Shown: in pieces, positions 3,476 through 33,660 of the stretch
Position numbering within the stretch: the first letter of the stretch is position 1
Layout: every line of letters begins with the position of its first letter
Origin: a virus
Strand: one strand, 5' to 3'
Length of the DNA stretch: 33,682 bases
Virus genome (UHGV): UHGV-0018978
The notes under the pieces: generated by a model
What the model was told of the DNA's origin: nothing
The model's input: only the letters and a program-made list of their open reading frames with translations
Databases searched by the model: none
Made by a program: the position numbers and the translations under genes

Positions 3476-4263
3476 CCGCCATTGATATAAATCTGGGTTT
3501 GTTTGTAATACACGCCGCCGATGTTATCCGCAGAACTTCTGCCAGTATCCTGAACGTTAATACCTGACAAAATACACCCTGAAGGCGCGCGGAATACCCA
3601 GGAAATTTCGTTACCACCGGGATTGTGAAACACTTCTCTGGTGTATCTGAAATCACGTACTGCACCAGAATCGGTGCTGCTGATGGTGATATCTCTGGTG
3701 CCATCAAACAGCACATTGTTAATCCTGCGGGCCGTCTGAAGCCGGGTTGCCGTTCCGGCATTGCCGCTGATATTGCTGATGGTGATATCCGAAGACAAAG
3801 CCATACCGTTGACCCTGCGGGTATTCGGTACAGCACTATTGGCTTTATTTACCGTGTCACGTAATGAAAGTGCATCGATAATTTCACTGGCTGTGTTTTT
3901 CCCGAGAATACCGCGCACAAACGCACTGAGCGGCGTTAATGCCATTGTGTCTTCGCCCGTAAAATACGGGAATGTATTATTCTGACCGGTTAATCCGGCA
4001 ATAGCTCCGGCTGAACCACTGTTCGTAATAAACAGTTTTTTCAGCGCTGTCATAATCTGGTCGGTTGTGTTTTTATCCGGTTTGATATTTGCCTGCCGGA
4101 GAATTTCCAGCAGTTCAGACTGAATAATATTAAACCAGTCCGGCCCCGGATACGTGGGCGGAATACCGTTCCCGCCTTCGGTGAAATAAAGCGTCGCCAT
4201 GCTTGATACCGCCGCGACAGGTGGCATCACCGGCACACCCGTCGGGTTATCCACATAAAACAT
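3454..4263 (-). CDS. Tail fibre protein, Mu S-like but short (269 aa)
   Basis: Sits immediately after the gp48-like gene and before the U-like chaperone, the position of S in Mu. N-terminus MFYVDNPTGVPVMPPVAA is of the fibre N-terminal type. Confidence 0.7.
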   Translation of the reverse strand: MFYVDNPTGVPVMPPVAAVSSMATLYFTEGGNGIPPTYPGPDWFNIIQSELLEILRQANIKPDKNTTDQIMTALKKLFITNSGSAGAIAGLTGQNNTFPYFTGEDTMALTPLSAFVRGILGKNTASEIIDALSLRDTVNKANSAVPNTRRVNGMALSSDITISNISGNAGTATRLQTARRINNVLFDGTRDITISSTDSGAVRDFRYTREVFHNPGGNEISWVFRAPSGCILSGINVQDTGRSSADNIGGVYYKQTQIYINGGWRTVSG

Positions 4264-15552: not shown

Positions 15553-16458
15553 TTATGCCGGGGTGGTGATGTACGGGCTGTCCACGATCTCCACATCCTT
15601 GTACCAGATGTTGGAATCGCCGCCGTTAACCAGCATGGCGTCAACAATGAGCTTCGCGTCCGCACGGTTTTTCGGCCCCACCACAAGGGTGGTCGGGCGG
15701 ATGCCCAGCGGCTCACCGTTGGTGCCCTTCATGCCCCGCAGCAACTCATTGGCTTTTTTGTAGTTCTCCACCGTCAGTGCTGCACGGGAACCGACGGCGG
15801 TCTGCCAGAAGCCGAAGCCCGCATTACAGCGACCGTCCACGCCGTACAGGAACTCGTGGTTCTTGAAGGTGTGCTCGCTGTTCAGATCGTCCAGGGCTTC
15901 AAACTTAAAGGCGCGTCGCGTCTGCCAGATGATGGGTTTCAGTACCTGCGACTCATCAATCAGGAACCACGGCTCACCCTTGTCTGATGCCGGGGTGCCG
16001 ACAACGTTGCTGTACGTGCCGTCACCCAGCGGGTGGTCTTCATCAAAGAAGTTCTGGCCGTCAAAGCACAAAGTTTTGAATCCGGCACACAGCAGGGCGT
16101 AACACAGCTTGTCCGGGAACACGGCTGTCATACGTCCATAGCGTTCAGCAGTAATGCTGTACTGACCAATCTGGTCATCTTCAATGTGTTCGCGCTTAAC
16201 GCGAATGGAACTTTCCCAGAGTTTGTTGGTGATGGTGTAACCATAACCGTCCAGCGTTGCCAGCTGACGCTCACCGACCCATTCTTTGATGTCCGGTAAA
16301 TCTTTCATCCAGCCGTAGGTGTTGGAGGCTGACGAACTCGGCACCTCAGAAGCAATGCGATTCCACTGCGGTTCGACACCACTCAGTCCACGGGTAAAGG
16401 CGGCGCTCAGGCAGGTGGTCAGCGCGTGAAGGATTTCAGAACTGACAGTCTGTCCCAT
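15553..16458 (-). CDS. Major head (capsid) subunit, Mu T-like
   Basis: 301-aa ORF immediately downstream of the protease/scaffold gene; size and synteny match Mu T. Confidence 0.8.
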   Translation of the reverse strand: MGQTVSSEILHALTTCLSAAFTRGLSGVEPQWNRIASEVPSSSASNTYGWMKDLPDIKEWVGERQLATLDGYGYTITNKLWESSIRVKREHIEDDQIGQYSITAERYGRMTAVFPDKLCYALLCAGFKTLCFDGQNFFDEDHPLGDGTYSNVVGTPASDKGEPWFLIDESQVLKPIIWQTRRAFKFEALDDLNSEHTFKNHEFLYGVDGRCNAGFGFWQTAVGSRAALTVENYKKANELLRGMKGTNGEPLGIRPTTLVVGPKNRADAKLIVDAMLVNGGDSNIWYKDVEIVDSPYITTPA

Positions 16459-17420
16459 TAGTTATTCTCCTGTTTTGGTTTAGCGGCGAGGAACTCTTCC
16501 CCGGTAATACCCATGCTGCGGCACATCGCCAGTTCGGCGTCGGTCAGTGTCTGCGCGGGTTTATCCTTGCCCTGGCTGGGCTTGTCGTTGTTCACCAGCG
16601 GCTGTGCACCTCTGGTGTACTCCGCAAACTGTTTGCGGCCTTCTTCCGTGCGGCAGGTGGCAAGGAACATGTCACGGTTTGCCGGGGCCACTTTTCCGGC
16701 TTCGATGGCCGCATCCACAAGCGCTTCTGCTTCCTTCTCTTCCAGTTGCTGAAGGCGTTGTTCTGCGGTTTCGGCACGGTTCAGTGCAAGATTGTGGGTT
16801 TCCACCGGTACAAACTTCGTCAGGTCAGGTGTCTGTGCGCGGTTCAGCGCCACCTGTTCGTTCTCCTGAAGTTGTTTAATGGCGGCCACGGTATCGTCCA
16901 CCGTGGCGGATTCAGCCAGCCCAAGCAGGCCAGTGATTTGCACAGGTACTGTCATCGGGTTTTTCTCCGTATTCAGTGCAGGAAAATCCAGGTTAGGTTT
17001 GTTGGTCAGTCCGACGCTGGACAGGCGTGTCACCACACCCTCCGCGTCATAGAAAAACGCCGGGCTGTAATAGCGGTAACGGCGTTCGCTCAGCATCCAC
17101 CGGGCGTACTCGCTCCAGACAACACGGCCTTCAATGGTGCCGCTGTCCGTCACGCGCAGTTCTTCCACCCAGCCATACGCCGGGGCTTCATCACCGCGTT
17201 GCCCTTTAATTTCGGTGGCGTGTTCAATGTCCACCGGAATTTTGATGTCGGACGAGCGGGTGACCACCTCATGCGGATTGCGGTTAATCCACGTCCGGCC
17301 ATCGCGCCCGGTGAACTCACCCACAGGGATGAGTTCGAGCCATTCCGGCAGTTGAGCAGGTGTCAGCTCAGGGATGGGTTCTGGCAGGGAAAAACACAGC
17401 GCCAGCAGTTCCGGTTGCAT
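16458..17420 (-). CDS. Head maturation protease/scaffold protein, Mu I-like
   Basis: 320-aa ORF with an N-terminal region followed by an Ala/Glu-rich helical scaffold-like C-terminus; sits between F and the capsid gene. Confidence 0.75.
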   Translation of the reverse strand: MQPELLALCFSLPEPIPELTPAQLPEWLELIPVGEFTGRDGRTWINRNPHEVVTRSSDIKIPVDIEHATEIKGQRGDEAPAYGWVEELRVTDSGTIEGRVVWSEYARWMLSERRYRYYSPAFFYDAEGVVTRLSSVGLTNKPNLDFPALNTEKNPMTVPVQITGLLGLAESATVDDTVAAIKQLQENEQVALNRAQTPDLTKFVPVETHNLALNRAETAEQRLQQLEEKEAEALVDAAIEAGKVAPANRDMFLATCRTEEGRKQFAEYTRGAQPLVNNDKPSQGKDKPAQTLTDAELAMCRSMGITGEEFLAAKPKQENN

Positions 17421-17469
17421 GTCAGTCTCCGTCGTTTGGGGTTACCGACGGTCAGTATGCGGAAGGCAG

Positions 17470-17492
17470 AAAAAAAAGCCGGATTTACCGGC
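17470..17492 (-). terminator. Rho-independent terminator (GCCGG-TAAAT-CCGGC plus T8) between F and I
   Basis: On the minus strand a 5-bp GC stem with 5-nt loop is followed by eight T. A near-identical copy lies at 25206-25227. Confidence 0.65.
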
Positions 17493-17634
17493 TTCACTGA
17501 ATACGGGGAAATACCCCCTTCAAAACCCCTTCAAAAACGCCACAGCATCTTCAAAAACGTCAGAATGCACATTCACGCCATCAGAATAAAAAACGCGTTT
17601 CTGATGCGTTTCAGGGGGATTTACGGCGGGAGGG

Positions 17635-18399
17635 TTACTCACTGTCAAAACGGGCCTGTTTTGTCGCCAGCTGGCGCGCCAGCTCCTGCTCACGGTTTAT
17701 ACCGGGATTGTAGTTCCAGCCCGGATCAATCCCTTCCGGCACATCTTCCTCTTCGCCCGTGCGTTTGTTCACCCAGCGGACAGTTCTGATTTCCGGCGCT
17801 TCGGTGTGAATGGTGCCCTGTGCCGCCAGTTGCGCATATTCACCACGGCTGACCTGACGGATGGTGCATTTGCAGCCCCAGCCGTTAGGGGCGAAATGCG
17901 TCTGCCAGAACGGGTGGTCTACAGGCAGACACAGACGCGCCCATTTCACATGCTCCGCCCGGTGCTCGCGGGATGGCCCCAGCTCGTAAATCAGATACGG
18001 CATGGCCCGCTTTGTCCGTTGAATGCGTTCCCACTGGCCCGCCGCGCGGGCGGTGCGCATGTTGGTATCAAAAATCGTGCGGAGGCGGCGGTCGCTGCCC
18101 AGCTGTACGGTGCGGGTTTCGCCCGTCAGCGGATCATCCATCTCCTGTACGCCCCACCATCCGCGTTTTATCAGCAGCGGTTGCAGCGCCTCCCGGAACT
18201 CGCTGAACGTCTGCCCGCTTTGCAGGGCGTCTTCCACAAGGGCTTTCACATCCGACAACAAATCCAGTTGCAGCATTTTTGCCACGGTGAAGCTGTTCCG
18301 GTGTTCTTCCCGCCATACATCCCGGTAATCAAAACCGGGGCGCAGCTTCTTCGCCTTCAGCCACGCCAGCGCCTCTTTCGGGATGAGGGTTTCACGCAT
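17635..18399 (-). CDS. Head morphogenesis protein, Mu F-like
   Basis: About 254 aa. Start taken at the ATG at 18399 (GGGAG Shine-Dalgarno upstream); the listed ORF runs to 18456 and would overlap the portal gene by 65 nt. Confidence 0.75.
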   Translation of the reverse strand: MRETLIPKEALAWLKAKKLRPGFDYRDVWREEHRNSFTVAKMLQLDLLSDVKALVEDALQSGQTFSEFREALQPLLIKRGWWGVQEMDDPLTGETRTVQLGSDRRLRTIFDTNMRTARAAGQWERIQRTKRAMPYLIYELGPSREHRAEHVKWARLCLPVDHPFWQTHFAPNGWGCKCTIRQVSRGEYAQLAAQGTIHTEAPEIRTVRWVNKRTGEEEDVPEGIDPGWNYNPGINREQELARQLATKQARFDSE

Positions 18400-19963
18400 G
18401 ACCGGTATCTCCCAGCGCACGCGCCTTAAAGCACACCTCCGCCAGTTGCAGGGCAAAGTCGTCCGCGTTCAGCGTTTCCTGAAGCTCAGGCAGGCGTTTC
18501 AGAAAGTCATCAAAACTGTCGCATTCCTGCGCCAGTGTCAGCACCGGGTTCGTGAACGCCTCGCCGGTTTTCTGCCAGTCACGCAGGGCATCATCCACCA
18601 TCAGCGCCAGTTCGTCGGAGTGTTCACGGTTCAGGGCGACGCGCTCGCGGTTCATCGCCACATCACCTGACATTCCGGCAGAAACCGGATGCAGAACATC
18701 AGCCCCTTCGTCCGGTTCAGCCAGGCCGAACCGGTCCCGCAGCTCCGATTCCTGAACCCGCATCCCCCGGTCAATCAGCGGCACCAGAGCATCTGTCAGC
18801 GCCTTCAGATCTTCGGCTTCACTGATACGCAGAACAACACGGGGGTAGTGCGCCTGTGGCCCGTAGTTGGCCTCAATGTAGGGACGCACCAGATATTCAT
18901 TCAGCGTGTTAGCCAGTTGTCGCGCGTCCCAGCGCACAATGTCCATGCGCACCTGATTGTGCACGTCCGCCTGTGAACGCGAACTGCCGTTATCTGTGGT
19001 CATGGTCTGCCCCAGCACCGCCTTACTGATTTGCGCATCGCACCATTCCGCCATTTCACGGAACAGTGCGCCGCCGTTATTCCGGCTGGCGGTTTCCTGC
19101 ATCTCCAGTTGCATGGACTGCGGAATGGCACACCCGGCATCCGAGGCAATGGACGCAATCGCATCAATCAGCACGCGGATTTGCTCCTCCGTGGCGTTGG
19201 GGCCGTATTTCCCCACAGTGACCGGGATGCCGAACTTTTCCGCGAACGCCCACCAGTCGCGCACGGTATAGGATTTCAGCATGTACATCACCGCCACCAG
19301 ACGGGCAAGACCGTTACGCAACGGCAGACCGGATTTCAGGCGCGGCTGGTGAACAATGAATTTTCCCGGTGTCAGCGGTACGCCATCCACCGGTTCGTCA
19401 TCCGTCAGCAGGCGGAACTGGCGCAGCGTGGGTTTTTCGGCTTTCAGGAAACGGGGATCAACCCACTCATAATCACGGGGCACCCAGTGGTTGTTGCGGG
19501 TGTTCCACAGAATTTCACAGACAGCAACACCTTTCCCCAGCCCGTCAAGCAAATCAAACATCAGCTCGGGGATTTGCGGCGCGGCCATCAGCTCACGGAT
19601 GGCATCCGCCAGCTGCACATCGGCATCGTCATCACTGGCGGCCACCACCACCGGTTCGATACCCGCCACCGTCAGCTTGCGGGTGCGCAGTACCGAGGCG
19701 TAATGCAAATCGCGTTCTTCCATCTCTTCAGCAAGGATAAAAAAATCACGCGTGATGCCGTCAGTAGCATTGCGCAGAATGCCTGCCAGCCTGCCGGGGT
19801 TCAGCCCGGAGGCGACGCTGATACCCGGCGAGGCCGAACGCACACCGGCATGACGCGGACGGGCCTGTGCTTCGTTGAGCGCCTCTTTTTTCAGCGTGTC
19901 TTCCTCACCGGTTGCCGGGTTCAGCAGACGGCGAACGGCCCCGGCCAGTTGTTTCAGGTTCAC
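18392..19963 (-). CDS. Portal protein, Mu gp29-like
   Basis: 523-aa ORF directly downstream of the terminase large subunit. Confidence 0.8.
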   Translation of the reverse strand: MNLKQLAGAVRRLLNPATGEEDTLKKEALNEAQARPRHAGVRSASPGISVASGLNPGRLAGILRNATDGITRDFFILAEEMEERDLHYASVLRTRKLTVAGIEPVVVAASDDDADVQLADAIRELMAAPQIPELMFDLLDGLGKGVAVCEILWNTRNNHWVPRDYEWVDPRFLKAEKPTLRQFRLLTDDEPVDGVPLTPGKFIVHQPRLKSGLPLRNGLARLVAVMYMLKSYTVRDWWAFAEKFGIPVTVGKYGPNATEEQIRVLIDAIASIASDAGCAIPQSMQLEMQETASRNNGGALFREMAEWCDAQISKAVLGQTMTTDNGSSRSQADVHNQVRMDIVRWDARQLANTLNEYLVRPYIEANYGPQAHYPRVVLRISEAEDLKALTDALVPLIDRGMRVQESELRDRFGLAEPDEGADVLHPVSAGMSGDVAMNRERVALNREHSDELALMVDDALRDWQKTGEAFTNPVLTLAQECDSFDDFLKRLPELQETLNADDFALQLAEVCFKARALGDTGHA

Positions 19964-21495
19964 AGTAAACCTCCCTCATTTTTCAGGCCGCGCGTCAGCT
20001 TCATCTGGCGGCGCGCGTTGCGTTCTTCCGGTTTCGCCGGGCGGTTCAGGCGGTGCAACTCGTAACGGTGGCAGTCATCCTTGCTGGCAAGGAAGCCCAG
20101 GAAAATGGCCACAGCGGCGTCGCCGTGACGTTTGTGACCGTCGCTGCCTTTGGTTCGTGAATCATCAATGCCTGGAACGCCACGCAGCAACTGAATGGCC
20201 CCGAGGTCATTGATCACGTCTTCATGCTTCGGAAGGATCAGCTCATCATCTTCAAATGCTGCACGGAAACGGGGCATGTTTTCGCGGTAGAACGCCACGG
20301 ACAGCATCACCTGTTCCACTTCGTCGCCGTACCGCTCCGCCGCCTGTTCTGCCAGATACTGACCATTCCCCCGCGCATCCATTTTGATACCGTCACGACG
20401 GGGCAGACGATCGCAAAGCCAGAACAGCACCTGCTCCTGCTGTTTAAACGGCACATTGCCAAGCTCAACCAGGAACGGCACCTCGCGGGTGGTGTCATCG
20501 TTCACCGTCACCGGGGCCAGTACGGTCAGGTCACCCGAACGCGCAAAGTCTTCCCCCAGACAGTGGCGCAGGTTCTTCGGGAGTTTTTCCAGCTCGGGGC
20601 GCACCACTGTTTCCAGCCATTCCCGGATATCTGCCCGGCGCTGGCTTTCCGTCAGTGCGTTAAATTCCGGTGTGCCGGTAAAGCGCAACACTTTTCCGGT
20701 GCCACGGGCCGCACGCTCACGCAGTGAGCGGGGGATATACGTGCCGCCGCCGTTTTTCGGGACGCAGTAATACTCCTCCAGCGCATCTTCGCGGGTGGCG
20801 GTATTTCGCAGCAGGCCTTCTTTCCATTCCGCCTCGGCTTCCGGTGACCACACCATGCCGCGCACCTGACAGATACGCCGGTACAGCCCGTCATTGCAGG
20901 CGTCGTCCAGCGTGATGGTGTGAATGCTGTAATCTTTTTTGCCCGCGCGGCTTTCCTGAATCAGCTGGTTAAACAGGTTGTCCACGCCGTCATGGGTGGA
21001 AATAAGGCGAATTTTGCCGCCCCATGTTTTCAGCGGCAGCACCGCCTTCAGCAGCTCGTCCAGTTTTTCATGGAACGCGGCCTCGTCGATGGTGACATTC
21101 CCCTGCATCCCGCGAATGTTGCTCGGGTTGCTGGACAGTGCCTTGACCTTAAAACCGCTGGCGAAGTACACGACGAACGTCAGAATGTCCTTGTCTTCGT
21201 CGGTGATCACTTCCTCGCAGATTTCTTCCGCTGCCGCATTAAACGCTTTCGCCCACATCGCCACGGCGTCGATAAATTCGCGGGCCATCTCCTTATTCGA
21301 ACCGATATAAAAGTGATCGCGCCCGCCGTCTTCCTTCTTCAGCGATGCCGTCAGTGCCGCATCTGCCGCCTCCGCCCAGGTTAAACCGGTACGGCGGGAT
21401 TTCTCGGCGATTTTCAGGTCGGCATCATCCGCCACCCAGCGTTTCTGATACGGCAGCAGAACATCATATTCACTGAACGTGTCCATTTGTGTCAT
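19960..21495 (-). CDS. Terminase large subunit, Mu gp28-like
   Basis: 511-aa ORF; size and position before the portal gene. Confidence 0.8.
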   Translation of the reverse strand: MTQMDTFSEYDVLLPYQKRWVADDADLKIAEKSRRTGLTWAEAADAALTASLKKEDGGRDHFYIGSNKEMAREFIDAVAMWAKAFNAAAEEICEEVITDEDKDILTFVVYFASGFKVKALSSNPSNIRGMQGNVTIDEAAFHEKLDELLKAVLPLKTWGGKIRLISTHDGVDNLFNQLIQESRAGKKDYSIHTITLDDACNDGLYRRICQVRGMVWSPEAEAEWKEGLLRNTATREDALEEYYCVPKNGGGTYIPRSLRERAARGTGKVLRFTGTPEFNALTESQRRADIREWLETVVRPELEKLPKNLRHCLGEDFARSGDLTVLAPVTVNDDTTREVPFLVELGNVPFKQQEQVLFWLCDRLPRRDGIKMDARGNGQYLAEQAAERYGDEVEQVMLSVAFYRENMPRFRAAFEDDELILPKHEDVINDLGAIQLLRGVPGIDDSRTKGSDGHKRHGDAAVAIFLGFLASKDDCHRYELHRLNRPAKPEERNARRQMKLTRGLKNEGGLL

Positions 21496-22094
21496 GCGCT
21501 AATCCCCAGAATTTCACGTTTGATGGTGTCAGCCGCACCACCTGACAGACCGCCCGTTCTGACCAGTTCTTCGGTTTTCTCTGCCATCTCCTGCGCAAAC
21601 GCATCGCGGATCGCTTTCTCGCGTTTATGGCTGGTCATGGCTGCCGCCTCCAGACGCTGGGCAACCAGCGCCAGTTGCCCCAGCGCTTTCGGTGCAACTG
21701 GCTTGTCGTCTTCTGCCATCGACATGGACGTTTCAAAGGCCAGCGTTTTTACAAACTCCATCAGCAGCTTGCCGACGTCAGACGTCGGCGCAGAACCCAG
21801 CTTTGCCGCCCAGACTTCGGCCATTTCGCGGGAGGCGCGGATTTTGGCCCCGACTTTTTCCATGCGGATGGCATAGCGGTTTAAGCCCGTCCGGCTTAAC
21901 TGCATCTCTTCCGGCAGGTTATGTTCGTCAATCAGGGCGTTGATGGCTTCGCGGATTTCTTCCTGCGTGTGCCGCTTTTCCCGCAGCATCTGATGCAACT
22001 GCTCCCGGATGCTGTCCGGGAGTAAATCCACTTTGGAAAGACGGCCACGGGTGGGGCGTTGTTCATTTTCCATGTGTGCCCTCCTGTTGCTCAC
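21492..22094 (-). CDS. Terminase small subunit-like protein, Mu gp27-like
   Basis: 200-aa ORF immediately upstream of, and overlapping by 4 bp, the large terminase gene. Confidence 0.6.
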   Translation of the reverse strand: MSNRRAHMENEQRPTRGRLSKVDLLPDSIREQLHQMLREKRHTQEEIREAINALIDEHNLPEEMQLSRTGLNRYAIRMEKVGAKIRASREMAEVWAAKLGSAPTSDVGKLLMEFVKTLAFETSMSMAEDDKPVAPKALGQLALVAQRLEAAAMTSHKREKAIRDAFAQEMAEKTEELVRTGGLSGGAADTIKREILGISA

Positions 22095-22192
22095 TACGCT
22101 GTAAACTTTCGTATGCAGATTTCAGTGCGCCGCTCTGGATTTCCCGCCATGTCAGATTGTGCGCCAGACGGCGAAGTTCATCACGGGACGCT

Positions 22193-22510
22193 CTACTTAT
22201 CGGATTCTTTTTTCGGTTCACGACGGCCCCCGTCTTCAGTACCCGGTGTTTTCAGACCGGCGTATATTTCTTCGCGAACGGACCGGATATCCTTACCCAG
22301 CAGCTTCCACAGCCGCGCACATGCCGGTGATGAACGCAGAAAACGTTTCATTGGCGCGTCCGGTGAATCCTGGTTCCAGCGCTTTCCGGTCTGTTGCTCA
22401 TATGCACTGGCAATCGCTTTTTGTTCGATATCTGCCAGCACAAGACAATGTGCCAGTTGCCGTACGACGTCCCGTTCTCCGCGACTTAACGGCTTCAGTT
22501 TTCGGGTCAT
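22193..22510 (-). CDS. Small conserved phage protein, basic C-terminus
   Basis: 105-aa ORF between the lysis cassette and the terminase genes. Confidence 0.45.
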   Translation of the reverse strand: MTRKLKPLSRGERDVVRQLAHCLVLADIEQKAIASAYEQQTGKRWNQDSPDAPMKRFLRSSPACARLWKLLGKDIRSVREEIYAGLKTPGTEDGGRREPKKESDK

Positions 22511-22512
22511 GC

Positions 22513-22806
22513 TCAGTCTCTCGCACGGGGTTTTTTAACGCCCGGCACACCGGACAGGCCGTTTGCCACATCCTCGCCGCTGCCGGTGATTTCAGCCACG
22601 TAACAGCCGCCCACATCAGACAGACGAACCAGCCCCTGCTCGCGCAGCCATGCAAGCTGGGTGCGCACTACATCACGGGATACCTTATGACCGTAGGCCT
22701 GAAGGCAGGTCTGCAACACGGATTCATTCGCGCTGTCGCCACAGTCCAGCAGGGAACGCAGCAACACAAGACGACGGTCTTCAGTGAGGATCTCTTTCAT
22801 CGCCAT
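22513..22806 (-). CDS. Small putative winged-helix DNA-binding protein
   Basis: 97-aa ORF tightly coupled to its neighbours; the segment VVRTQLAWLREQGLV looks like a winged-helix recognition region. Confidence 0.45.
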   Translation of the reverse strand: MAMKEILTEDRRLVLLRSLLDCGDSANESVLQTCLQAYGHKVSRDVVRTQLAWLREQGLVRLSDVGGCYVAEITGSGEDVANGLSGVPGVKKPRARD

Positions 22807-23111
22807 TAATTTTTTTCCTTTAACTCGTTCTCTAATAACAAATCACTGATGCGGGATACCTGGCGGATGGATGGCCCCAGTTCCCTGATTTCACCCCGCA
22901 GATTGCTGATATCCAGTTGCAGGCGGTGAAATTCATTGCGGTCAGGTAACTGATTCACCAGACCTTCCATCACCGATATGCGGGAACGCAGCGAATCAAA
23001 CTCTTCGCGTTTGACGTAGGTCTTCGCCAGAATCAACTGGAGAAAGTTGATCCCTGTCATCAGCAATGCCCACAGAATGGGCCAGTTGGCTCTGATCATT
23101 TCCCAGGACAC
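22806..23111 (-). CDS. Membrane-anchored coiled-coil protein (spanin- or releasin-like lysis accessory protein)
   Basis: 101 aa; N-terminal hydrophobic segment WPILWALLMTGINFLQLILA followed by a heptad-like coiled coil. Confidence 0.5.
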   Translation of the reverse strand: MSWEMIRANWPILWALLMTGINFLQLILAKTYVKREEFDSLRSRISVMEGLVNQLPDRNEFHRLQLDISNLRGEIRELGPSIRQVSRISDLLLENELKEKN

Positions 23112-23323
23112 GTTTTCCTCCTGCGTTCCCGCATCTGCTGACAGTCAATACAGGTCACCACATCCGGCAGCGCCGCAAGGCGCTGTGCCGGAATAGCGTT
23201 CCCGCAGTCATTGCAGAAGCCACGACTGTGGGGCGCTTCTTTTGTCCGCGTCTGCCAGGCTTTAACGACGTTCTGACGCTCGTTAAAAACCACTTCACTG
23301 ATGCGGTCGATTTCGTCGGTCAT
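23096..23323 (-). CDS. TraR/DksA-family C4 zinc-finger protein
   Basis: 75 aa with CNDCGNAIP...CIDCQ, the CxxC-(17)-CxxC spacing of the TraR/DksA zinc finger. Confidence 0.65.
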   Translation of the reverse strand: MTDEIDRISEVVFNERQNVVKAWQTRTKEAPHSRGFCNDCGNAIPAQRLAALPDVVTCIDCQQMRERRRKTCPGK

Positions 23324-23943: not shown

Positions 23944-24341
23944 AGATAACGCTGAAGACAGAGCAGGCCACCGCAGCCGCTACCACACAGCCAGAATACT
24001 GGTTGAGATAATGTTCCCATCAGCAGAATGCCGCAGACACAGCAGAAATATCCCAGCGCCCAGACCACCCATGACCACACGATGATGTGGCGGCCAAAAG
24101 CCCGGTAACGGACTTCGGGCAGCAGACGATATGGCACATTTCCCAGGCTGGCGCTGTATGAAAACAGTACAACGCAGGAAAAGCCCAGCAGCATCAGCAC
24201 GAACGATCGCCAGCCACATAACATGCTTATGATGAACATGCAGAGCGTCAGCCCGGCCAGGGGCCACGGCGTTCTCATCAGTCGGGAACAAATCAGCCAG
24301 TCACACAGTTTTAAAATTTTGTTCATTACCTTTTTCCACAT
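23916..24341 (-). CDS. Putative multi-pass membrane protein (holin candidate)
   Basis: 141-aa ORF with 3-4 hydrophobic segments rich in Cys/Trp. The unusual composition means it could be a spurious frame. Confidence 0.3.
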   Translation of the reverse strand: MWKKVMNKILKLCDWLICSRLMRTPWPLAGLTLCMFIISMLCGWRSFVLMLLGFSCVVLFSYSASLGNVPYRLLPEVRYRAFGRHIIVWSWVVWALGYFCCVCGILLMGTLSQPVFWLCGSGCGGLLCLQRYLCGGFPWIR

Positions 24342-24552
24342 TGAATTTTTCCCTGTACTTCTGGCACTGCCAGAAAATGTCCCGTGTATCTACGGAGTTC
24401 CAGCCACGCATGTAGTAGCTGGCGTGTGTGCCGTCATGGCCGGTATAATCCAGCGGTTTCGGGGGCGGACCTCCGGCCATGCGGTGCAGAACCTCCTGAC
24501 GCAGGCGGTCACGTCGCCCGGCTTTCAGTGAGGCGTTCCAGCCTTTGCCCAT
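24301..24552 (-). CDS. Small hypothetical protein coupled to the endolysin gene
   Basis: 83-aa ORF whose start lies next to the endolysin stop; no recognisable motif. Confidence 0.35.
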   Translation of the reverse strand: MGKGWNASLKAGRRDRLRQEVLHRMAGGPPPKPLDYTGHDGTHASYYMRGWNSVDTRDIFWQCQKYREKFNVEKGNEQNFKTV

Positions 24553-24553
24553 A

Positions 24554-25150
24554 TCACCCCCGCGTGGCGGACATGATGCCCAGAGGGGTATCGATGATTT
24601 CCAGACAGGCGTCGGTCAGTTCTTCCATGCGGTTAAACCAGCCGTTCAGGTATTTGCCACGAGCGGGTTTTGATTTGATGAGGCCCGCATAAAAGCGGCA
24701 ACGGCGAACAATGCAGCGGGACAGCAGCCAGTCCGGGGTGGACAGGCTCACAGCCTTGCGGGTACGCGGGCCGATGATGCCATCGGCAGACACATCAGCG
24801 GCTTCCTGTAAAAACTTGACGGCTTGCTCCACGCCATGCTGAACAGCCGCATCAAACACAAAGAGCGCCACACCATCAGGCCACTGATCACACCCGGCAA
24901 GCAGCCAGTAATCGCGCCAGTAAATCTGCGCAACCTGTTCGCGGGTCAAATCCTTAATGCGGGTATCTGGTTTGCCGTCGCCGTTGACATCGGTTTTGCC
25001 GTCAATCACACCGTCGCGGCGGTCAGAAATGCCGTATTTTGTTTCGCCGCCGCTGTCAGTGGGGTCATTGACATAGCCGCCTTCGATATCAGGACGCAGA
25101 ATAAAATTCAGCGCATGTTCAAAGGCCGGGGAGAATTTTTGATTTTCCAT
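24554..25150 (-). CDS. Endolysin, GH108-type lysozyme with a peptidoglycan-binding domain
   Basis: 198 aa. The N-terminal EGGYVNDPTDSGGETKYGIS motif is characteristic of GH108 enzymes. No N-terminal transmembrane/SAR segment. Confidence 0.75.
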   Translation of the reverse strand: MENQKFSPAFEHALNFILRPDIEGGYVNDPTDSGGETKYGISDRRDGVIDGKTDVNGDGKPDTRIKDLTREQVAQIYWRDYWLLAGCDQWPDGVALFVFDAAVQHGVEQAVKFLQEAADVSADGIIGPRTRKAVSLSTPDWLLSRCIVRRCRFYAGLIKSKPARGKYLNGWFNRMEELTDACLEIIDTPLGIMSATRG

Positions 25151-25205
25151 AAAAGCACCTGTGAAGCAGATTTAAACGTGGTCTGCTTCATGGTGCCGGA
25201 GGCAT

Positions 25206-25227
25206 AAAAAAAGCCGGATTTACCGGC
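25206..25227 (-). terminator. Rho-independent terminator (GCCGG-TAAAT-CCGGC plus T7) downstream of the secreted-protein gene
   Basis: Same stem-loop as at 17470-17492, with a T-run on the minus strand, about 25 bp after the stop of the 25252-25749 gene. Confidence 0.65.
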
Positions 25228-25251
25228 TTCATTGAATATAAGGTTATTGGT

Positions 25252-25749
25252 TCAGTTAACTTTACGGGCAGAACACGTAGTCTTCATTACTGAACGTTCA
25301 ATTTTTATCTTCCAGCCATTTACTGTTTTTTCGACAGGATCATCTTCAGCTTGCTTTAAATTTTTAACTTGCATGAAATTCAGCGGGGCTGGGGTATCAT
25401 CGTCCCATGATGTCGGGCGAACATAATCAGGGACAACAAAAGGCTCAAAAACAGTTTCACATAAAGCAGACGTCATTTGAGCGAACTCGTCGCTATCGGG
25501 GCGAACCGGTCCTGTAACATACTGCATTTTTATGTTGATTTCGTTATCTCGCACAGACGTCTTTAAATCCTGATATACACCTAAGTTAAATCCTTTAAAC
25601 TCAGCAATGGCAGCGTCACCTTTACCGTACCAGTCGGTATAGTCAACGGATGTTTTTTTCTGAAAAACATCTTTGACTTTTTGCTGGAATGTATCCGCCG
25701 CTTGTACAGTAGTAACAGTTAGTAAAAGAATAAGGGGAAGATATTTCAT
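25252..25749 (-). CDS. Secreted/periplasmic protein of unknown function with an N-terminal signal peptide (candidate moron)
   Basis: 165 aa starting MKYLPLILLLTVTTVQA-ADT, a typical Sec signal. The gene is AT-rich relative to the flanking phage genes and has its own terminator. Confidence 0.6.
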   Translation of the reverse strand: MKYLPLILLLTVTTVQAADTFQQKVKDVFQKKTSVDYTDWYGKGDAAIAEFKGFNLGVYQDLKTSVRDNEINIKMQYVTGPVRPDSDEFAQMTSALCETVFEPFVVPDYVRPTSWDDDTPAPLNFMQVKNLKQAEDDPVEKTVNGWKIKIERSVMKTTCSARKVN

Positions 25750-26147
25750 TGTTCGTCCTTAAATAGTTGCATTTGATACTTTCCACGCTCCAGTCGGCGC
25801 ATTCTTTTGATGGCCTGATATACCGTTTTGTATGTCACTTTGTAACGCTGCACCAGCTCCGCTACGTTTTTCCCATCAAAATCACGCCAGATGCGCATGT
25901 CTCTGATAAGATTTTCCAGTATTTTCCCTTTCGGAACATATACCTGAATCCCACCGATATGATTGCAAATCGCCACTACCAGCTCAAGGGAGTGGGCAGG
26001 GTTAACTCCAAGCCTTATCAGCTCTTGTCGCAACAGAGCATTCAGCTCAGCCAGTAAAGATGGAAATCCCGATTTTTCCTGAACATCATCAAAATATTCA
26101 AGGATACTGTCGTCCTGATAATCACCAAATAAATCCTGCTCTTTCAT
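25746..26147 (-). CDS. mor: Mor/C-family transcriptional activator
   Basis: 133 aa with an acidic N-terminus and a C-terminal helix-turn-helix (TYKTVYQAIKRMRRL); sits directly after gemA, as mor does in Mu. Whether it is the Mor or the C orthologue cannot be settled from sequence alone. Confidence 0.7.
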   Translation of the reverse strand: MKEQDLFGDYQDDSILEYFDDVQEKSGFPSLLAELNALLRQELIRLGVNPAHSLELVVAICNHIGGIQVYVPKGKILENLIRDMRIWRDFDGKNVAELVQRYKVTYKTVYQAIKRMRRLERGKYQMQLFKDEQ

Positions 26148-26695
26148 AGAACTATTCTCCCGCTGTTTCTGGCGCGGGCATACGCACTGGTCAGTGCATC
26201 ATATCCGCGCAGTTCCCGCCCGGTTTCGCTCACAGGTAAAGGCACGCCATGTCGGGTAAAGGCTTCCCGAATGCAGCGCATATGCCACTGCTTGAGCGTT
26301 TCGAGCACAACCTGCAACGATTCCCCATGACACCAGGCCAGCGTGGAAACACCCTGACCACCATTACGTCTGGCCGTCAGGCGTGCAACGTATTTGTCCA
26401 GCGCGGCGTCGCTGCCATCAGAGACAAAACCATCAAAGGACATCTGCTGCCAGATTTTATAAATCTTCTCGCGTGGTGTGACATACCCCTTAAAGCGACG
26501 TCGGGGATGTTTTTTCTGCTTCTTAAACCCGCGCTCTTTCATGGCATCGAGCACCTGTTCCAGTTGTGCAACGGACAGCTCGCGGCAACTGGTTTTGCCC
26601 GTGCACTGCACCAGAAAGGCTCGGTAAGTGTCATCGTCGAGGTGCAACTCCCGGCGGGCAACATGAATTAATTTAATCAGGGATGTGCGACTCAT
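26144..26695 (-). CDS. gemA: GemA-like regulatory protein (Mu gp16 family)
   Basis: 183-aa ORF immediately upstream of the Mor-like gene, matching the Mu gemA-mor arrangement. Confidence 0.65.
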   Translation of the reverse strand: MSRTSLIKLIHVARRELHLDDDTYRAFLVQCTGKTSCRELSVAQLEQVLDAMKERGFKKQKKHPRRRFKGYVTPREKIYKIWQQMSFDGFVSDGSDAALDKYVARLTARRNGGQGVSTLAWCHGESLQVVLETLKQWHMRCIREAFTRHGVPLPVSETGRELRGYDALTSAYARARNSGRIVL

Positions 26696-27062: not shown

Positions 27063-27237
27063 TTCTTAATACCTCTTCGCAATAAAAGATTTCGCTTGGA
27101 TAACGTTTTTGTATGCGCTCCATCACCTGCATACATGCCTGCTCTGTGGGCCAGATTTTTTCTGTTACCGGAATGGCATCACAGGCATCATTTCCACAGG
27201 TGCCAACCAGCAGGACAAAGCCAATTAACTTAATCAT
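27055..27237 (-). CDS. Small signal-peptide/lipoprotein-like protein
   Basis: Internal start MIKLIGFVLLVGTCGND... gives a 61-aa protein with a hydrophobic leader ending near Cys; ATG at 27237 lies 2 nt after the upstream stop. The listed 92-aa ORF is probably over-extended. Confidence 0.4.
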   Translation of the reverse strand: MIKLIGFVLLVGTCGNDACDAIPVTEKIWPTEQACMQVMERIQKRYPSEIFYCEEVLRNE

Positions 27238-27772
27238 GCTCGCTGATTTCCTGTGTTGCCGCCGGAACCGGTGAATAATCAAGAATGAGATAGCGCAGGA
27301 CGTGGTCGGTGATATTCCAGCCACTGGAGCCACAAATAAAACGACCCAGCCGGATATCGATATAAGCCATCACAAAACGGGGCATTCCCTGTTTGCACAT
27401 CTCGTCATCCACTTCAGCAACGATGTGAACCGACTCGCAAGTCAGTACACCTGTCGCAAATTCTTTTGCCAGTGCCGGAATGGCATTGCCTTCCAGCCAG
27501 GGCAAAGAGCGGCGGAACGCGCACCATTGAGCATCATCAATATCGGGGTGCTCCGTTGTTGCGTTTCGTCTTACTGGCGGCGTTGGACGAGGGCGCTGAA
27601 CGTCATAAAAGCCATTACATTCAGTCAGCAATCCGGCATCAACCGCATCGCGCAGGAAATACACCATTGAGGAAGGTGGCATCTTCATTTTTTCAGCCAG
27701 AACGCCACAAGTCAGACGGCCGTAAGCGCGTAATAATGTACTGACACCGTTCAGAATTTTTGCATCAATCAC
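27230..27772 (-). CDS. Hypothetical early-region protein with a possible N-terminal HTH
   Basis: 180-aa ORF tightly packed with its neighbours. Confidence 0.45.
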   Translation of the reverse strand: MIDAKILNGVSTLLRAYGRLTCGVLAEKMKMPPSSMVYFLRDAVDAGLLTECNGFYDVQRPRPTPPVRRNATTEHPDIDDAQWCAFRRSLPWLEGNAIPALAKEFATGVLTCESVHIVAEVDDEMCKQGMPRFVMAYIDIRLGRFICGSSGWNITDHVLRYLILDYSPVPAATQEISEHD

Positions 27773-28421: not shown

Positions 28422-28946
28422 TTAAATACCGGCTTCCTGTTCAAACGGAATAATGGAAAAATCTTCAATGCCCGATTTAACTGTAATTCCGGCGACACCT
28501 GCGACCGCTTTCGGTTCCAGTAAAATCGCTTCCTTGTTGATTTCCTGTTTCGTGCGAATAAAACGTTGCAGGCCAAGACGCTCCAGCGTTTCCATCACCG
28601 CATCCACACCGCGAATACTTACCGATGGTGGGCGCTGACGCCATGATACATCGCCGGTTACCAGGTTTGCTGTCTTCACCTTGCCGCCGTTCGTCAGTTC
28701 GTCACGGTTCGCTTCACACCATCCCTGAACACCTTTTGAAAGGGTTTCGATACTGGTTTTAAGCGGCGCAATCTGTGAGGCGTATTTCTCCGTAATCTCA
28801 GCAATAGCGTCATTCATTTCTGTTTCAAGTCGTGCCGCTTCGCGTTGCAGGTCCCCAATCCGGCGGATATCACATACCACGGCATCGCGGGATTGCGGAA
28901 CATAAGCCGCTGCGGCGCTCTTGATTCGTTTTGCTGGTTTAGCCAT
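28422..28946 (-). CDS. gam: Host-nuclease inhibitor Gam (binds DNA ends)
   Basis: 174 aa, MAKPAKRIKSAAAAYVPQSRDAV...GIEDFSIIPFEQEAGI; length and sequence agree closely with my recollection of Mu Gam. Confidence 0.85.
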   Translation of the reverse strand: MAKPAKRIKSAAAAYVPQSRDAVVCDIRRIGDLQREAARLETEMNDAIAEITEKYASQIAPLKTSIETLSKGVQGWCEANRDELTNGGKVKTANLVTGDVSWRQRPPSVSIRGVDAVMETLERLGLQRFIRTKQEINKEAILLEPKAVAGVAGITVKSGIEDFSIIPFEQEAGI

Positions 28947-28966: not shown

Positions 28967-29266
28967 TTAATATTCGCTGTATACAATGCTGGATACAGCA
29001 CGATTGCTTAATTCCATCTTTTGGGCTATCACATGAATAGCCAGCCCTTCTTTATAAAGTTCACGACACAAATATTTGTCGTGCTCACTGACCCGGTATG
29101 CACACAACGATATTCCGTGCCTTCTGGCATGTGCCTGTAGGGCGGTTGGGGCAACGTTCAGTTTTTTCGCCATTTCTTCGACGGTCATTTTCCCGACACT
29201 GGCTTCGATAAATTCCCGGTCTTCGCGTGACCAGCGCTTACGATTACACTTCATGTCAGCCACCAT
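28967..29266 (-). CDS. Small putative DNA-binding protein (HTH)
   Basis: 99 aa with HTH-like segments (TVEEMAKKLNVAPTALQAHARRHGIS). Confidence 0.45.
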   Translation of the reverse strand: MVADMKCNRKRWSREDREFIEASVGKMTVEEMAKKLNVAPTALQAHARRHGISLCAYRVSEHDKYLCRELYKEGLAIHVIAQKMELSNRAVSSIVYSEY

Positions 29267-30230: not shown

Positions 30231-30436
30231 CCATTAAGACGGGCCGTCCATACTGAACGGGCAACCCCGGATTTATGCTCCATAATTCTGACCGCGCTTT
30301 TTACCAGTTCCACTGGTGGGTAAGTGATTTCAAGAATCGGACGCGCCACACCGAGATATGATTCATTTACATAACTCCCGCGCGCCTGTAACCAATGCTG
30401 CGCATCTTTTGCCATTTTGATATTACGAGACATCAT
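30209..30436 (-). CDS. kil: Kil-like host cell division inhibitor
   Basis: 75-aa ORF immediately downstream of B, the position and size of Mu kil. Confidence 0.55.
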
Positions 30437-31392
30437 GATTTAGTATCCTCTTTCACACCCAGCAGCATCGAAACATCAACGTCCTGGTCTAACTCTTTGT
30501 AAGCCTCTCGCAGATAATCCTCGTTAACACGTTCGCCTTTACCGAAGGCATTCATAACAGCAAGGCGCAGAGTTTGATTCATAATGCGGAGTGCACCGGG
30601 CGTTTGTGCAATCTGCTGTAATAGTTCCCGTTCATTTTTCCCGGTAATCTGCCAGGCATCCGCAATAGCGTTTACATCGTCTTCTTTGGTTTTATTAATT
30701 GCAGTGCGCTTTGCAATACGGGAAAACAGACGGGCAAACTCAATTGTTCTGTCGCCATTACTGGTCATATTTGAATAAACACGGTGATTCCCCATCAGAA
30801 CAAGACCAATACAGGCTGATTCCTGTAACAGACGGAGTTCTTCCAGCGCCTCGGTGTCGAGGTGATCAGCTTCGTCAACAATGACCAGCCCCTGTGTTCC
30901 CTTTAGGCGACGACGCAGATTGCGGGAAAGCGGCCCTTTGCGACATGGTGCATTATTCATTCCCAATTCTTCGGCAAGTTCGGTCAGACATTCCAGTGTA
31001 CTGGCACGGGATGGCGCAATGGTGATCATCCAGACATTATTATTAGTGCGACAAAATTCACGGGCCGCTTCGCTTTTACCCACGCCAGGATTACCGCAGA
31101 TAACAGCAATAGTTCCGGTCAGATTAGCAAAACGCATACTTGTCCAGATTTGACGGGCTGTTGTAGTTTCCACAAAACGCGGGGGTTCCGGCAGTTCTTC
31201 AGCGCGGTGATAGTTTTCCAGCCAGCGTTGCAGTGTGCTCCCGATTGCTTCCATGTTGCCGTTATATTTATCATTCACAAAACCACTGACTGTGCTCAGG
31301 GCTACACCTGATTCACTGGCGATGCGTGTCAGCGTGGTTTCTCCATTGTCTACAAGCGTGCGCAGTCCTGCGCGAATATCGGAAATATTCAT
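30433..31392 (-). CDS. B: Transposition ATPase / target DNA activator B (MuB)
   Basis: 319 aa, [14 protein letters not shown]... with Walker [11 protein letters not shown] and Walker [11 protein letters not shown]; closely matches my recollection of Mu B. Confidence 0.9.
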
Positions 31393-31430: not shown

Positions 31431-33403
31431 TTAAATGGCTTTTTTGCGTCTTTTCTGTTCCAGAATATCCAGTGACTGATTCAGATATTCATCACGAGAG
31501 GGTTCGTATTTATCATCGGGGGTGCGATATTTAACCTGCACTGTGTTACCTACAGGCCGGAAAATACCAACAACCCTTGATTCTGGTGCTGCTGGTTCGG
31601 CTATCTGCGGCAGTAATTCAGCAACTTCCAGTGCGTCCATTTGTTTCTGTGCCTTAATCGCTGCTTTCGTCGCAGATTTCAGTTGTTTCTGGCGTCGGCG
31701 ATACTCACGACCTGCCGCAGCATCATTAAATGCAACTGGTGCCAGACATTCCGCTTCACAGATAAACCGACCGTCCAGGGTGTAGCAATAAACAGTGCTG
31801 TGTAGCTGCTGCGGATCAAACCTGACCACGACTTTTTTCACTCCGGCATTCATTAATGCCATGTTGTAATAAACGTTTTTCGCGCCTTTAAGAGAGCCGC
31901 CAACTTTAAGCGTAAACTCGCCTTTGCGTGAAACGTTCACCGCCTCAGCAGGCAGTAACAACATCCGTTTTTGTTCTTCGGTTGGCTTACGTACAATCGT
32001 TCTGGCGTATTCACGCTCAAAAACATCATCAAACGAAAGTTTGCCCCCGCACATTTCTGTTTCACGGCCTGTTCTGGCATTGAACATCGCCACACCTTCG
32101 GCAAGTGTTTTCAGAAACAGTTCTGCATCAATAGCCCGGTCGCCATAGTTATCAGGTTTTGCCTGCGGATTTGGCCCCGTATATGCGCCAGCCAGCGCCG
32201 GATGCTTATCAACATATTCCTCAAGTCCCCCTACACCAAAAGCGCGTTCAACTGGTTTTGCCTGCCCCCAGCCCTTACCAGCAACAACACTTGTCCAGTG
32301 CATGGTGGCCCCCATCAGTAAAAACAGTCCCTTTGGATCATCCTCTTTCACTTTAAAGCGGTAGCGATTGGGCGCGCCCCCCGTCAGCCATTTATTCGCT
32401 GCGCCACGGGTGTTATCAATAGTGATATGAAAATCCTCCGGGATGCCGTAGCGTGTCACCACATCCATGAACGAGAGGCGAATTGAATCGATGTTCTCGC
32501 TTACATCGCAACGCCAGCCCAGAATTTTTCGGGTTTTCACATCCTGCCAGAACCATGTTTTCGGGCGGATCACATCACCGTTAAACCAGCGTACAAAGAC
32601 GTTATGGAGATAACCGTCGCCGTTGATCCACTGCATAGCGTCCAGGTGTTCCACAGTTCGCTGCTGTGCCGGTATCAGATGCATCAGTGCATGTTCACCT
32701 TCACGGCAGGCAACAACCATTGCCTCGTCCAGTTGCTGAATCCGGCGAAAGGCCGTGGCACGGGAGGGAATATTCCAGCCATGCTCACGTGCAGCCAGTT
32801 CCAGACGCTCATAACATTTGCGGAAGGCGGGCTTTTCCGGTCGCAGATAATCTGCAATCAGAAACTGCCAGGCATCCTCGTCAAATTCACTTTTGTGAAC
32901 ATTGCGACGAGATGCACCACGTCCATCAACAAGTGCAGCCGCCCAGTCAGGCTTCGCAAACTTCTGTACCGCACAGTGGATGCGCTGACCTGGTAATGCC
33001 CTGCAACGGTCGCAAAAGCCGTTTTTGTTGAAATCCCCTGGTTCAGCATTTCGTCTGCGGCCTGAACTGCAGGCAACCATTTTTCAGCAAGTCTGCGCTG
33101 GGAATCGCTGGCGTTATCCCATTTGCTCCACAGTGCCTCACGATCGTAATCGTGCGCTTCCAGCGTGGGGCGGGCGATTTCAAAATACCCCTGGCTTGTT
33201 TCAATACCTCCTTGTTGCAATAAAATTTCAGCACGTAATGCAACAGGAAATGATTTGATATTGAATTCAAATGATACGCCTTTAGTACCTGTAACTTGCC
33301 TAAACACCCAGCCTTCTCTTTGTGCCTTACGTGTAATGTTAGTTGCTTGCTTTGGCAAACCAGCAAAACCAAGCAATTCTTTCGCTGTATACCACTCTTT
33401 CAT
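31431..33403 (-). pseudogene. A: DDE transposase A (MuA-like, D108-type N-terminus), split by a frameshift near 32968
   Basis: The N-terminal 181-aa ORF (32858-33403) and the 549-aa ORF (31431-33080) are in different frames. Conserved sequence runs ...[11 protein letters not shown] in frame 1, then continues [19 protein letters not shown]... in frame 2, with about 223 nt of overlap. The 549-aa part includes the catalytic core and C-terminus. Confidence 0.7.
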
Positions 33404-33410
33404 AGCGCAC

Positions 33411-33632
33411 CTAGTATCGAGATGGCCAGATATCCTGCGGTGTCATTCCCAATGCATCTGCAATGATTTTTTCCGCTTTCGGGTATCTCTTATCTAAAGC
33501 ATTTTTTAATGTTGAAGACGAAAGATGATTCGATCTTCCCAATTCGGCCAGTGACATATTGCGTTTTCGTAACTCAGCAACGATGTCAGCCCGATGCCAG
33601 TCTTGGCGGTTAGCTCTTTTATTCATATGCAT
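33411..33632 (-). CDS. ner: Ner-like DNA-binding regulator (D108-type)
   Basis: [73 protein letters not shown] belongs to the Ner/Nlp family. Start chosen at 33632 to give 73 aa; the ORF extends to 33656. Confidence 0.8.
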
Positions 33633-33660
33633 TTCATGTAATCCTTTCAGATTCACCCGT

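Follow-up and report, generated by a model that had tools for sequence, protein, structure and literature searches.

A lone Mor-family activator and repeated Pm-type modules in a Mu-like prophage: a putative two-tier lytic cascade

Among transposable phages, bacteriophage Mu serves as the reference model, and the default is usually taken to be its Mor-C-late cascade: Mor turns on C through the middle promoter Pm, and C turns on Plys, PI, PP, and Pmom, the promoters for late transcription. The virus genome UHGV-0018978 of UHGV, a stretch of 33,682 nucleotides (nt) referred to below as the window, is a Mu-like prophage whose long open reading frames (ORFs) all lie on the minus strand, and it raises the question of how late transcription is organized when a single activator of the Mor/C family is encoded. 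A first-pass annotation of the window had noted one such gene and had left two possibilities, namely, that one activator drives both the middle and the late promoters or that the second one was displaced by the insertion of a secreted-protein gene.

The answer favored here, with a probability of about 0.8, is a two-tier lytic cascade in which one Mor would serve Pm-type modules placed before the lys and I operons, with no C relay. On this reading of the sequence, the first of the two possibilities is supported in that Pm-type sites stand before both lys and I, but not in its division of promoters, as no separate middle class is present.

The Mor/C-family gene of the window

The activator and its neighbors are the following (positions are those of the window).

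26144-26695, minus strand: gemA (PF06252, E = 7e-33), directly upstream of mor, as in Mu
25746-26147, minus strand: mor, 133 amino acids (aa), the sole Mor/C-family gene of the window (PF08765, E = 6.6e-30)
25252-25749, minus strand: 165-aa ORF, an optional cargo gene whose start overlaps the mor stop in an ATGA
24554-25150, minus strand: lys, a GH108 endolysin with a PG_binding_3 domain, unrelated to Mu lys and the first gene after site 1 (see below)
24301-24552, minus strand: gp18 orthologue, 71% identical to Mu gp18 and second in the Mor-box operon

The product of mor, whose reading frame overlaps the gemA stop, reaches 103.7 bits against PF08765 (cut-off 24.9), with residues 28-128 covering positions 3-107 of the 107 of the profile. 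Its identity amounts to 63% with Mu Mor and 32% with Mu C, and these two share 37% between themselves. The residues named for the Mor/C family in an earlier study align with this protein, and the same study gives as marks of the family a small size (about 100-150 aa), an N-terminal half that is acidic, and a C-terminal half that is basic (PMC2582627). The window Mor, with 133 aa, the N-terminus MKEQDLFGDYQDDSILEYFDD, and the C-terminus AIKRMRRLERGKYQ, has this size and charge. Five residues (G65, G66, Y70, P72, and G74) are invariant in an alignment of 16 sequences that included Mu Mor and C. Both the linker motif GG..Y.P.G and the C-terminal helix-turn-helix (HTH) are present, the latter with weak HTH_28 and HTH_23 matches at residues 91-118, and the recognition helix reads VTYKTVYQAIKRMRR, as compared to VTFNTVYKAIRRMRR in Mu Mor and LSQPQIYQIIARQRK in Mu C. 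Because the protein is closer to Mu Mor than to C and is encoded directly after gemA, it is taken to be a Mor orthologue and not C.

A second copy was sought with phmmer --max, using Mu Mor, Mu C, the window Mor, and a three-sequence hidden Markov model (HMM), in the complete six-frame set of 918 segments that run from stop to stop and measure 20 aa or more; the mor segment was the sole match, the next best having E > 0.5. An HMM of 16 Mor/C sequences, which as a positive control yields both Mor (1e-64) and C (4.5e-51) from Mu, gave a single match in the window and no second copy. Two small HTH-like ORFs (28967-29266 and 22513-22806) were considered as hidden Mor/C relatives and rejected, the hhalign probability being <1%. 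With ner (33411-33656) at one end and a truncated mom gene at the other, the window leaves uncovered no part of the interval in which C could be encoded. The full-length relative RM9088, annotated by the Prokaryotic Genome Annotation Pipeline (PGAP), likewise has one Mor-family gene only.

It is thereby confirmed that the window encodes exactly one Mor/C-family protein. The first-pass annotation was right both in this count and in placing the gene next to gemA, and a second family ORF, possibly diverged or short, that could have overturned its count was found in none of the six frames. The second Mor/C paralogue which in the three-tier Mu cascade lies downstream of Pm is thus missing from the window, whereas the Mu control gives two family members.

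Mor-type modules in front of lys and I

The Mor site of Mu has been defined as a 16-base-pair (bp) dyad at -51 to -36, centered at -43.5, in a promoter with a -10 but without a -35 element (PMC4390567, PMC4287176). The Mu sequence directly after mor is AGTAAAGCCGGTTAATCCGGCTTTTTTTACGTCCTCAATATCCTG. When the register is rebuilt from the published positions, with AGTAAAGCCGGTTAAT at -51 to -36 of Mu Pm, TATCCT falls at -13 to -8 and the published -57G and -54A are recovered; the dyad register is considered sound because these two bases are reproduced. Two modules of this type are present in the window, site 1 (TTCAATGAAGCCGGTAAATCCGGCTTTTTTTATGCCTCCGGCACCATG) between the 165-aa ORF and lys and site 2 (TTCAGTGAAGCCGGTAAATCCGGCTTTTTTTTCTGCCTTCCGCATACTG) between the F-like gene and I. 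Their elements, with dyads scored by a position weight matrix (PWM), and the genes that flank site 2 are as follows.

25218-25233, minus strand: Mor-type dyad of site 1, AATGAAGCCGGTAAAT, corresponding to -51 to -36 of Mu Pm (PWM 28.4 of 28.4 bits)
25206-25230, minus strand: hairpin and T-run of site 1, GAAGCCGGTAAATCCGGCTTTTTTT (-13.9 kcal/mol, z = -2.65)
25190-25195, minus strand: -10-like CACCAT, 22 nt after dyad 1 (in Mu Pm: TATCCT, 22 nt)
17635-18456, minus strand: Mu F-like gene (PF04233)
17483-17498, minus strand: Mor-type dyad of site 2, AGTGAAGCCGGTAAAT, at the position of Mu PI (27.6 bits)
17471-17495, minus strand: hairpin and T-run of site 2 (-13.7 kcal/mol, z = -3.9)
17454-17459, minus strand: -10-like CATACT, 23 nt after dyad 2, homologous to CAAACT of Mu PI
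16458-17420, minus strand: Mu-like I protease, at the head of the head/tail operon (PF10123, E = 2e-44)

The exact 20-mer AAGCCGGTAAATCCGGCTTT occurs twice in the window, where none is expected from 100 shuffles, and it matches the Mu sequence immediately 3′ of mor. A terminator scan and RNA folding gave one fold, a hairpin with a U-run, for both copies and for their Mu counterpart. At site 1 the hairpin resembles an intrinsic terminator and lies at the end of the early operon, overlapping the dyad and the promoter spacer, as after Mu mor; at site 2 it is likely the terminator of the lysis/packaging operon. The predicted starts lie near 25182 (lys ATG at 25150) and near 17447 (I ATG at 17420), and at both sites the dyad is centered about 43.5 bp upstream of the predicted start, in the place of a -35 element. 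The -35 positions read CCGGCT, no TGn precedes the -10-like hexamer at either site, and a scan for the sigma-70 consensus found no full promoter at site 1 or site 2. The C box is absent from the lys and I promoters, and the Mor-type dyad is there instead.

The first-pass annotation had suggested that the regions 17421-17469, 25151-25205, and 812-935 be compared for a shared activator-binding motif. The suggestion proved correct for the first two, as a 25-nt element is shared just upstream of them and in the same intergenic gaps, but it failed for 812-935. In the PWM scan of the window for the dyad, nothing besides the two sites scored above 15.3 bits. The third-best place for the 16-nt dyad and 32-nt box PWMs (15.3 bits, 6519-6504) is inside the baseplate V gene and was rejected as a third Mor site, and GCCGG-N5-CCGGC at 3985-3999, inside a tail-fibre gene and without a T-run, was judged a chance occurrence. 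From I onward the head/tail operon is gapless in the ORF map down to 936, and no gap equivalent to PP was found in the tail genes.

The rival explanation that survives best, although it is unlikely, is that the repeated element is only a shared intrinsic terminator. Late operons would then be expressed by read-through, antitermination, or a regulator outside the Mor/C family, such as TraR/DksA, and Mor would act elsewhere or at site 1 only. A textbook hairpin with its U-run is indeed what the element looks like, and the TraR/DksA-family protein encoded at 23096-23323 could modulate RNA polymerase. The register of the element, however, is that of the experimentally defined Mor site of Mu Pm, and its conservation is not that of a terminator: stem and loop are nearly invariant in nucleotides across genera, with no covariation, and the conserved stretch reaches 5′ of the stem (CA[A/G]TGA). 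In ten loci from Pluralibacter, Raoultella, Klebsiella, Kluyvera, Serratia, and Brenneria, with Mor 62-70% identical, the module is nearly invariant and the flanks have diverged. CA..AT G is conserved at fixed spacing in 44 unique site-1 sequences. Among 34 unique site-2 sequences from IMG/VR, the dyad and the -10 (CATACT or CACACT, then G[TA]CCG) are kept at a spacing of 22-23 nt, whereas many lineages have lost the right hairpin arm and the T-run, which are frequently replaced, e.g., by AGTGAAGCCGGTTAATCCACCTGCATCCCC. Because the dyad and -10 are kept while the right arm and T-run are often lost, the selected unit would be the DNA dyad and not the RNA hairpin. A terminator would tolerate compensatory changes in the stem and would need its T-run, and for this reason the data favor a promoter over an element that is a terminator only.

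The position of the two modules points the same way. Upstream of site 1 stands mor, and downstream of it, after lys, comes the gp18 orthologue; gp18 is the first gene of the Mu middle operon, and site 1 is therefore the positional orthologue of Pm. The -10 and leader of site 2 (CCTTCCGCATACTGAC and an inverted repeat) align with those of Mu PI (CCTCCCGCAAACTGAC and an inverted repeat), and only the activator box differs.

The distribution of the second module was followed in 80 loci of IMG/VR, each of which has a Mor relative and a flank of 10 kilobases (kb) at most. One Mor/C gene was found in 61 of them and two, the Mu type, in 19. A dyad lies just after mor in 60 of the 61 single-activator loci and in 19/19 Mu-type loci. 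Of the single-activator loci, 53 have a flank of 9 kb or more, and in 50 of these a second dyad follows 6.5-9.5 kb downstream (in another it lies at 4.1 kb), whereas none of 13 Mu-type loci has one, without exception. The second module is hence strictly associated with the absence of C, a pattern that speaks against a plain terminator. The dyad A[AGT][GT]GAA[AG][CG]CGGT[AT]AAT would mark the target promoters of a lone Mor and provides a practical rule for annotation.

The two-tier cascade would proceed as follows. Early transcription from Pe yields Mor, the product of the last regulatory gene of the early operon, which is followed by the optional cargo gene, and the early transcript probably stops at the hairpin and T-run 25230-25206. 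Mor would bind the dyad 25233-25218, which overlaps this hairpin, and recruit the sigma-70 RNA polymerase to a promoter without -35, as at Mu Pm; Mu Mor activates sigma-70 transcription through the alpha subunit's C-terminal domain (alpha-CTD) and sigma region 4. The site 1 promoter would directly drive lys, the gp18 orthologue, and the packaging genes. The second module of dyad, hairpin, and -10 (17498-17454) would end that operon and restart transcription into the I protease, head, and tail genes. A C relay is not present and would not be needed.

Several points weigh against this proposal. Mor binding at both dyads, the start sites, termination, and com-mom expression are all deduced from the sequence. 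The -10-like hexamers are weak (CACCAT), though TATCCT of Mu Pm is weak too. The PWM scan found no canonical Mor dyad in 812-935, upstream of com, and at least one late function, com-mom, is left unexplained by a single Mor. The locus counts are phylogenetically nonindependent, many loci being close relatives. A 16-nt frameshifting deletion in transposase A may mean that this prophage never runs the cascade. Finally, the TraR/DksA zinc finger (23096-23323) and a weakly HTH-like 99-aa protein (28967-29266) are other DNA-binding candidates and possible coregulators.

The com-mom promoter, the cargo slot, and the rest of the window

The mom module stands at the end of the window.

626-811, minus strand: com
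1-675, minus strand: mom, cut by the window edge (com and mom together, about 89% nucleotide identity to Mu)

Upstream of com, the stretch 812-935 has retained Mu Pmom's GATC palindrome (about 913-886), which is the Dam/OxyR-type region of that promoter. The C box is of the type TTAT-N6-ATAA, for example ATTATGCCCCAATAAC at Mu Pmom, centered near -43.5. In the window only its left half, ATTATG, survives upstream of com, the spacing to any -10 is wrong, and relatives do not conserve this half but read, among others, GTTGTG or ATGTGTG.

Among 38 IMG/VR loci (L022-L065), the com promoter region falls into two discrete classes. Class A has the Mu C box ATTATG-N4-[AG]ATAAC and the -10 TAAGAT, with C on the same contig in 7/7 checkable cases. 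Class B, to which the window belongs, reads TG[AG]TTAAATA(T)CCCCCAGCCCTCCGGGC...CAT[AG]TC...TTATTACAC and retains the GATC palindrome; all eight checkable cases (8/8) have a single Mor. A TAAAT lies 21-22 nt before CAT(A/G)TC upstream of com, a spacing as in Mor promoters, and the left half is not conserved. To regard this TAAAT as a Mor half-site is speculation, and read-through from the tail operon into com-mom is equally possible. The control of com-mom in C-less phages is a small, testable question for mom regulation, the C box being gone from a module otherwise close to Mu.

It is here that another rival explanation finds its support, namely, that a highly diverged second activator, or an unrelated late activator, replaces C at the I and/or mom promoters. 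The com-mom promoter lacks a canonical Mor dyad and has the class B form, which is conserved but confined to C-less phages, so that something besides a standard Mor site may act there; several small ORFs also have no known function. The I promoter, however, has a full Mor dyad, so that no extra factor is needed there; the two small HTH-like ORFs were already rejected by hhalign, and no further ORF matched Mor/C in the six frames. This explanation is considered still less probable than that of a mere terminator, and the two-tier cascade with a lone Mor is retained for lys and I.

The space between mor and the lysis genes holds, as the first-pass annotation stated, a gene for a secreted protein: the N-terminus of the 165-aa ORF (25252-25749) reads as a Sec-type signal peptide (MKYLPLILLLTVTTVQA/AD). 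The protein has two conserved cysteines and a confident AlphaFold2 (AF2) model, the structural matches of which are uninformative, and it was assigned to no Pfam, PHROG, or PADLOC family. Its ORF has a guanine-plus-cytosine (GC) content of 43%, against 50-58% around, and, preceding the hairpin, belongs to the early transcription unit. Two Escherichia coli prophages, KFu019 and STEC388, have neither this ORF nor C; their mor stop is followed directly by TCAATGAAGCCGGTAAATCCGGCTTTTTTT and then by lys. In a survey of the window and loci L006-L015 and L092-L171, the same position is occupied by a family of 165-172 aa with a signal peptide, of which the window ORF is a member, by a family of about 170 aa, or by a multipass membrane protein of 105-109 aa, or it is empty, as it is in Mu and in the KFu019-type prophages. 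The stretch from mor to the Mor box is a slot for variable cargo, with at least three unrelated small secreted or membrane proteins in different phages, and does not mark a lost C, because the ORF lies upstream of the hairpin and because other loci have unrelated cassettes or nothing there.

That C once stood between mor and lys and was displaced or deleted by the secreted-protein gene, the prophage being a degenerate Mu without its late activator, is very improbable and is refuted by the comparison: the ORF does fill the mor-lys space with its low GC and the frameshifted transposase gene shows some decay to be real, but KFu019 and STEC388 lack C even without the ORF and have box and lys right after mor, a single activator is found in 61/80 IMG/VR Mor loci and 10/10 loci from other genera whatever fills the slot, the cargo ORF is upstream of the terminator and Mor box whereas Mu C is downstream, and the I promoter bears a box of Mor type and not of C type, which indicates late promoters adapted to Mor.

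The other annotated genes are listed in the order of transcription.

33411-33656, minus strand: ner (PF13693)
31431-33403, minus strand: transposase A, in two ORFs
30433-31392, minus strand: B
28422-28946, minus strand: Gam
27230-27772, minus strand: gp11-like gene
23096-23323, minus strand: TraR/DksA C4 zinc finger, 75 aa (PF01258, E = 2e-12)
22806-23111, minus strand: DUF2730/gp25-like gene
21492-22094, minus strand: gp27, small terminase
19960-21495, minus strand: large terminase
18392-19963, minus strand: Mu portal
15553-16458, minus strand: major head protein T

Transposase A consists of two overlapping ORFs of 181 aa and 549 aa (31431-33403, minus strand). Aligned to a relative (L095), it shows gaps near codon 143 that total 16 nt and shift the frame, and, barring an assembly error at the gap, this copy of the prophage is probably defective in transposition. 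The 99-aa early protein at 28967-29266 (minus strand) has two HTH-like segments, with subthreshold matches to HTH_Tnp_1, Sigma70_r4_2, and GerE, and may be an additional early regulator. The TraR/DksA gene sits within the lysis/packaging operon, and no such gene is annotated in the Mu region from mor to gp28. Proteins of the TraR/DksA family bind the secondary channel of RNA polymerase, and late in infection this one could modulate the transcription of the host or of the phage. Two adjacent paralogues, 22193-22510 (105 aa) and 22063-22221 (52 aa), lie on the minus strand with the gp26-like gene on one side and the gene for the small terminase on the other; both match phrog_8988 and share K.P.SR..RD..R.LAH.L....I...A..SAYE.

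Nucleotide identity to Mu, D108, and SfMu is limited to two stretches, gemA to the start of mor (about 80%) and com-mom (about 89%). The megablast match to these phages covers only 26695-26101 of the window, ending about 46 nt into mor. The mosaic borders are sharp, as Mu identity is lost about 46 nt into mor and is regained only at the com start codon (about 801). The GC content is 47-50% in the early region, 43% in the cargo ORF, and 55-60% in the late genes, and the late region has no close match among sequenced phages. Relatives at 91-95% identity are present in 84 of 5426 complete E. coli genomes.

Comparison with known systems

Among GenBank phages, 54 records match Mu C, 40 of them in a single place and 14 in two places, and the two-place records are Mu, D108, SfMu, and Yersinia vB_YpM only. 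All loci examined from other Enterobacterales genera (10/10) have a single activator. The two-activator layout of Mu, which the first-pass annotation had taken as its expectation, turns out to be that of a minority, the Mu/D108/SfMu group.

A lone activator is the majority state, and the absence of C from Mu-like phages is already published. In the Pasteurellaceae phages SuMu, phiMhaMu2, and 3927AP2, a GH108 lys is found directly after mor, without C (Niu et al. 2015, PMC4553209). To this known lys-after-mor architecture the window adds another case: as in the window and the KFu019-type prophages, lys (GH108 and PG_binding_3) comes right after mor in the three phages, and the middle genes and C are absent (PMC4553209). 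They differ in having no typical com-mom, whereas the window has a Mu-like early region and com-mom at 80-89% nucleotide identity; that study offers no analysis of their promoters. A promoter-level explanation was not found in the literature searched and may exist beyond it. One Mor/C-family gene per genome is also the rule in BcepMu, phiE255, Vibrio martha 12B12, Shewanella MuM16, and Pseudoalteromonas HS6, which are distant, with 25-40% identity to C.

Lone activators of the other type exist as well. In 11 IMG/VR contigs (L172-L182) the sole Mor/C gene is C-like, 54-67% identical to Mu C. In four of them, seen as loci with 1.5 kb on either side (L088-L091), the C-like activator stands right behind gemA, with a Mu-type endolysin downstream, and in two (L090 and L091, from the contigs of L172 and L173) the C-like gene is followed by the C-box-like ACCATAATCCC. 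These contigs have one activator, as the window does, but a C-like one, and are the mirror image of the Mor-type wiring.

Single-activator phages of both the Mor type and the C type thus exist, and Mu unites an early end of the former type with a late end of the latter. The three-tier cascade of Mu could accordingly be a recombinant chimera of two kinds of single-activator phage, with the window close to one parental state, almost intact; this origin is put forward tentatively, as somewhat less than an even chance. It is suggested because at PI a clean exchange has affected the activator box but not the -10 and leader, which have stayed homologous, because the com promoter classes track C (7/7) or a single Mor (8/8) on the same contig, and because the nucleotide identity to Mu breaks just inside mor. 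If it were true, Mu would have arisen by fusing an early region of Mor type, as far as Pm and gp18-20, with an activator and late region of C type, and the first late promoter would have become a "middle" promoter whose main job is making C.

Seen from the window and about 90 related loci, the shorter circuit would be the default among Mor-bearing enterobacterial Mu-like prophages, the Pm-type module, with a Mor site that would also serve as terminator, being used anew before each late operon. That a Mu-like prophage has a single Mor-family gene is no sign of decay. The two arrangements also offer a natural comparison for the addition or removal of a regulatory tier, since the core promoter of I is the same and the boxes are exchanged in perfect correlation with the activators present.

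The closest known system is Mu Mor with Pm. Shared with it are an activator after gemA (63% identical), the dyad register, the hairpin and T-tract, a weak -10, the lack of a -35, and gp18 downstream. Pm, however, occurs once in Mu and drives only gp18-gp20 and C, whereas the window has two copies of the module, one directly before the lysis/packaging operon and one directly before the head/tail operon. Position 4 of the dyad is G in the window and A in Mu, and the window, unlike Mu, has an optional cargo gene between mor and the module. As to the late promoters which C serves in Mu, those of the window stand at equivalent places, before lys and I, and the -10 and leader of I are homologous to those of Mu PI. 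They differ from the C system in that the window has no C gene, that no C box of the ATTATG-N4-ATAAC type is found at lys or I, and that the C box of the com promoter has been lost, the activator box at I being of the type that Mu keeps for Mor.

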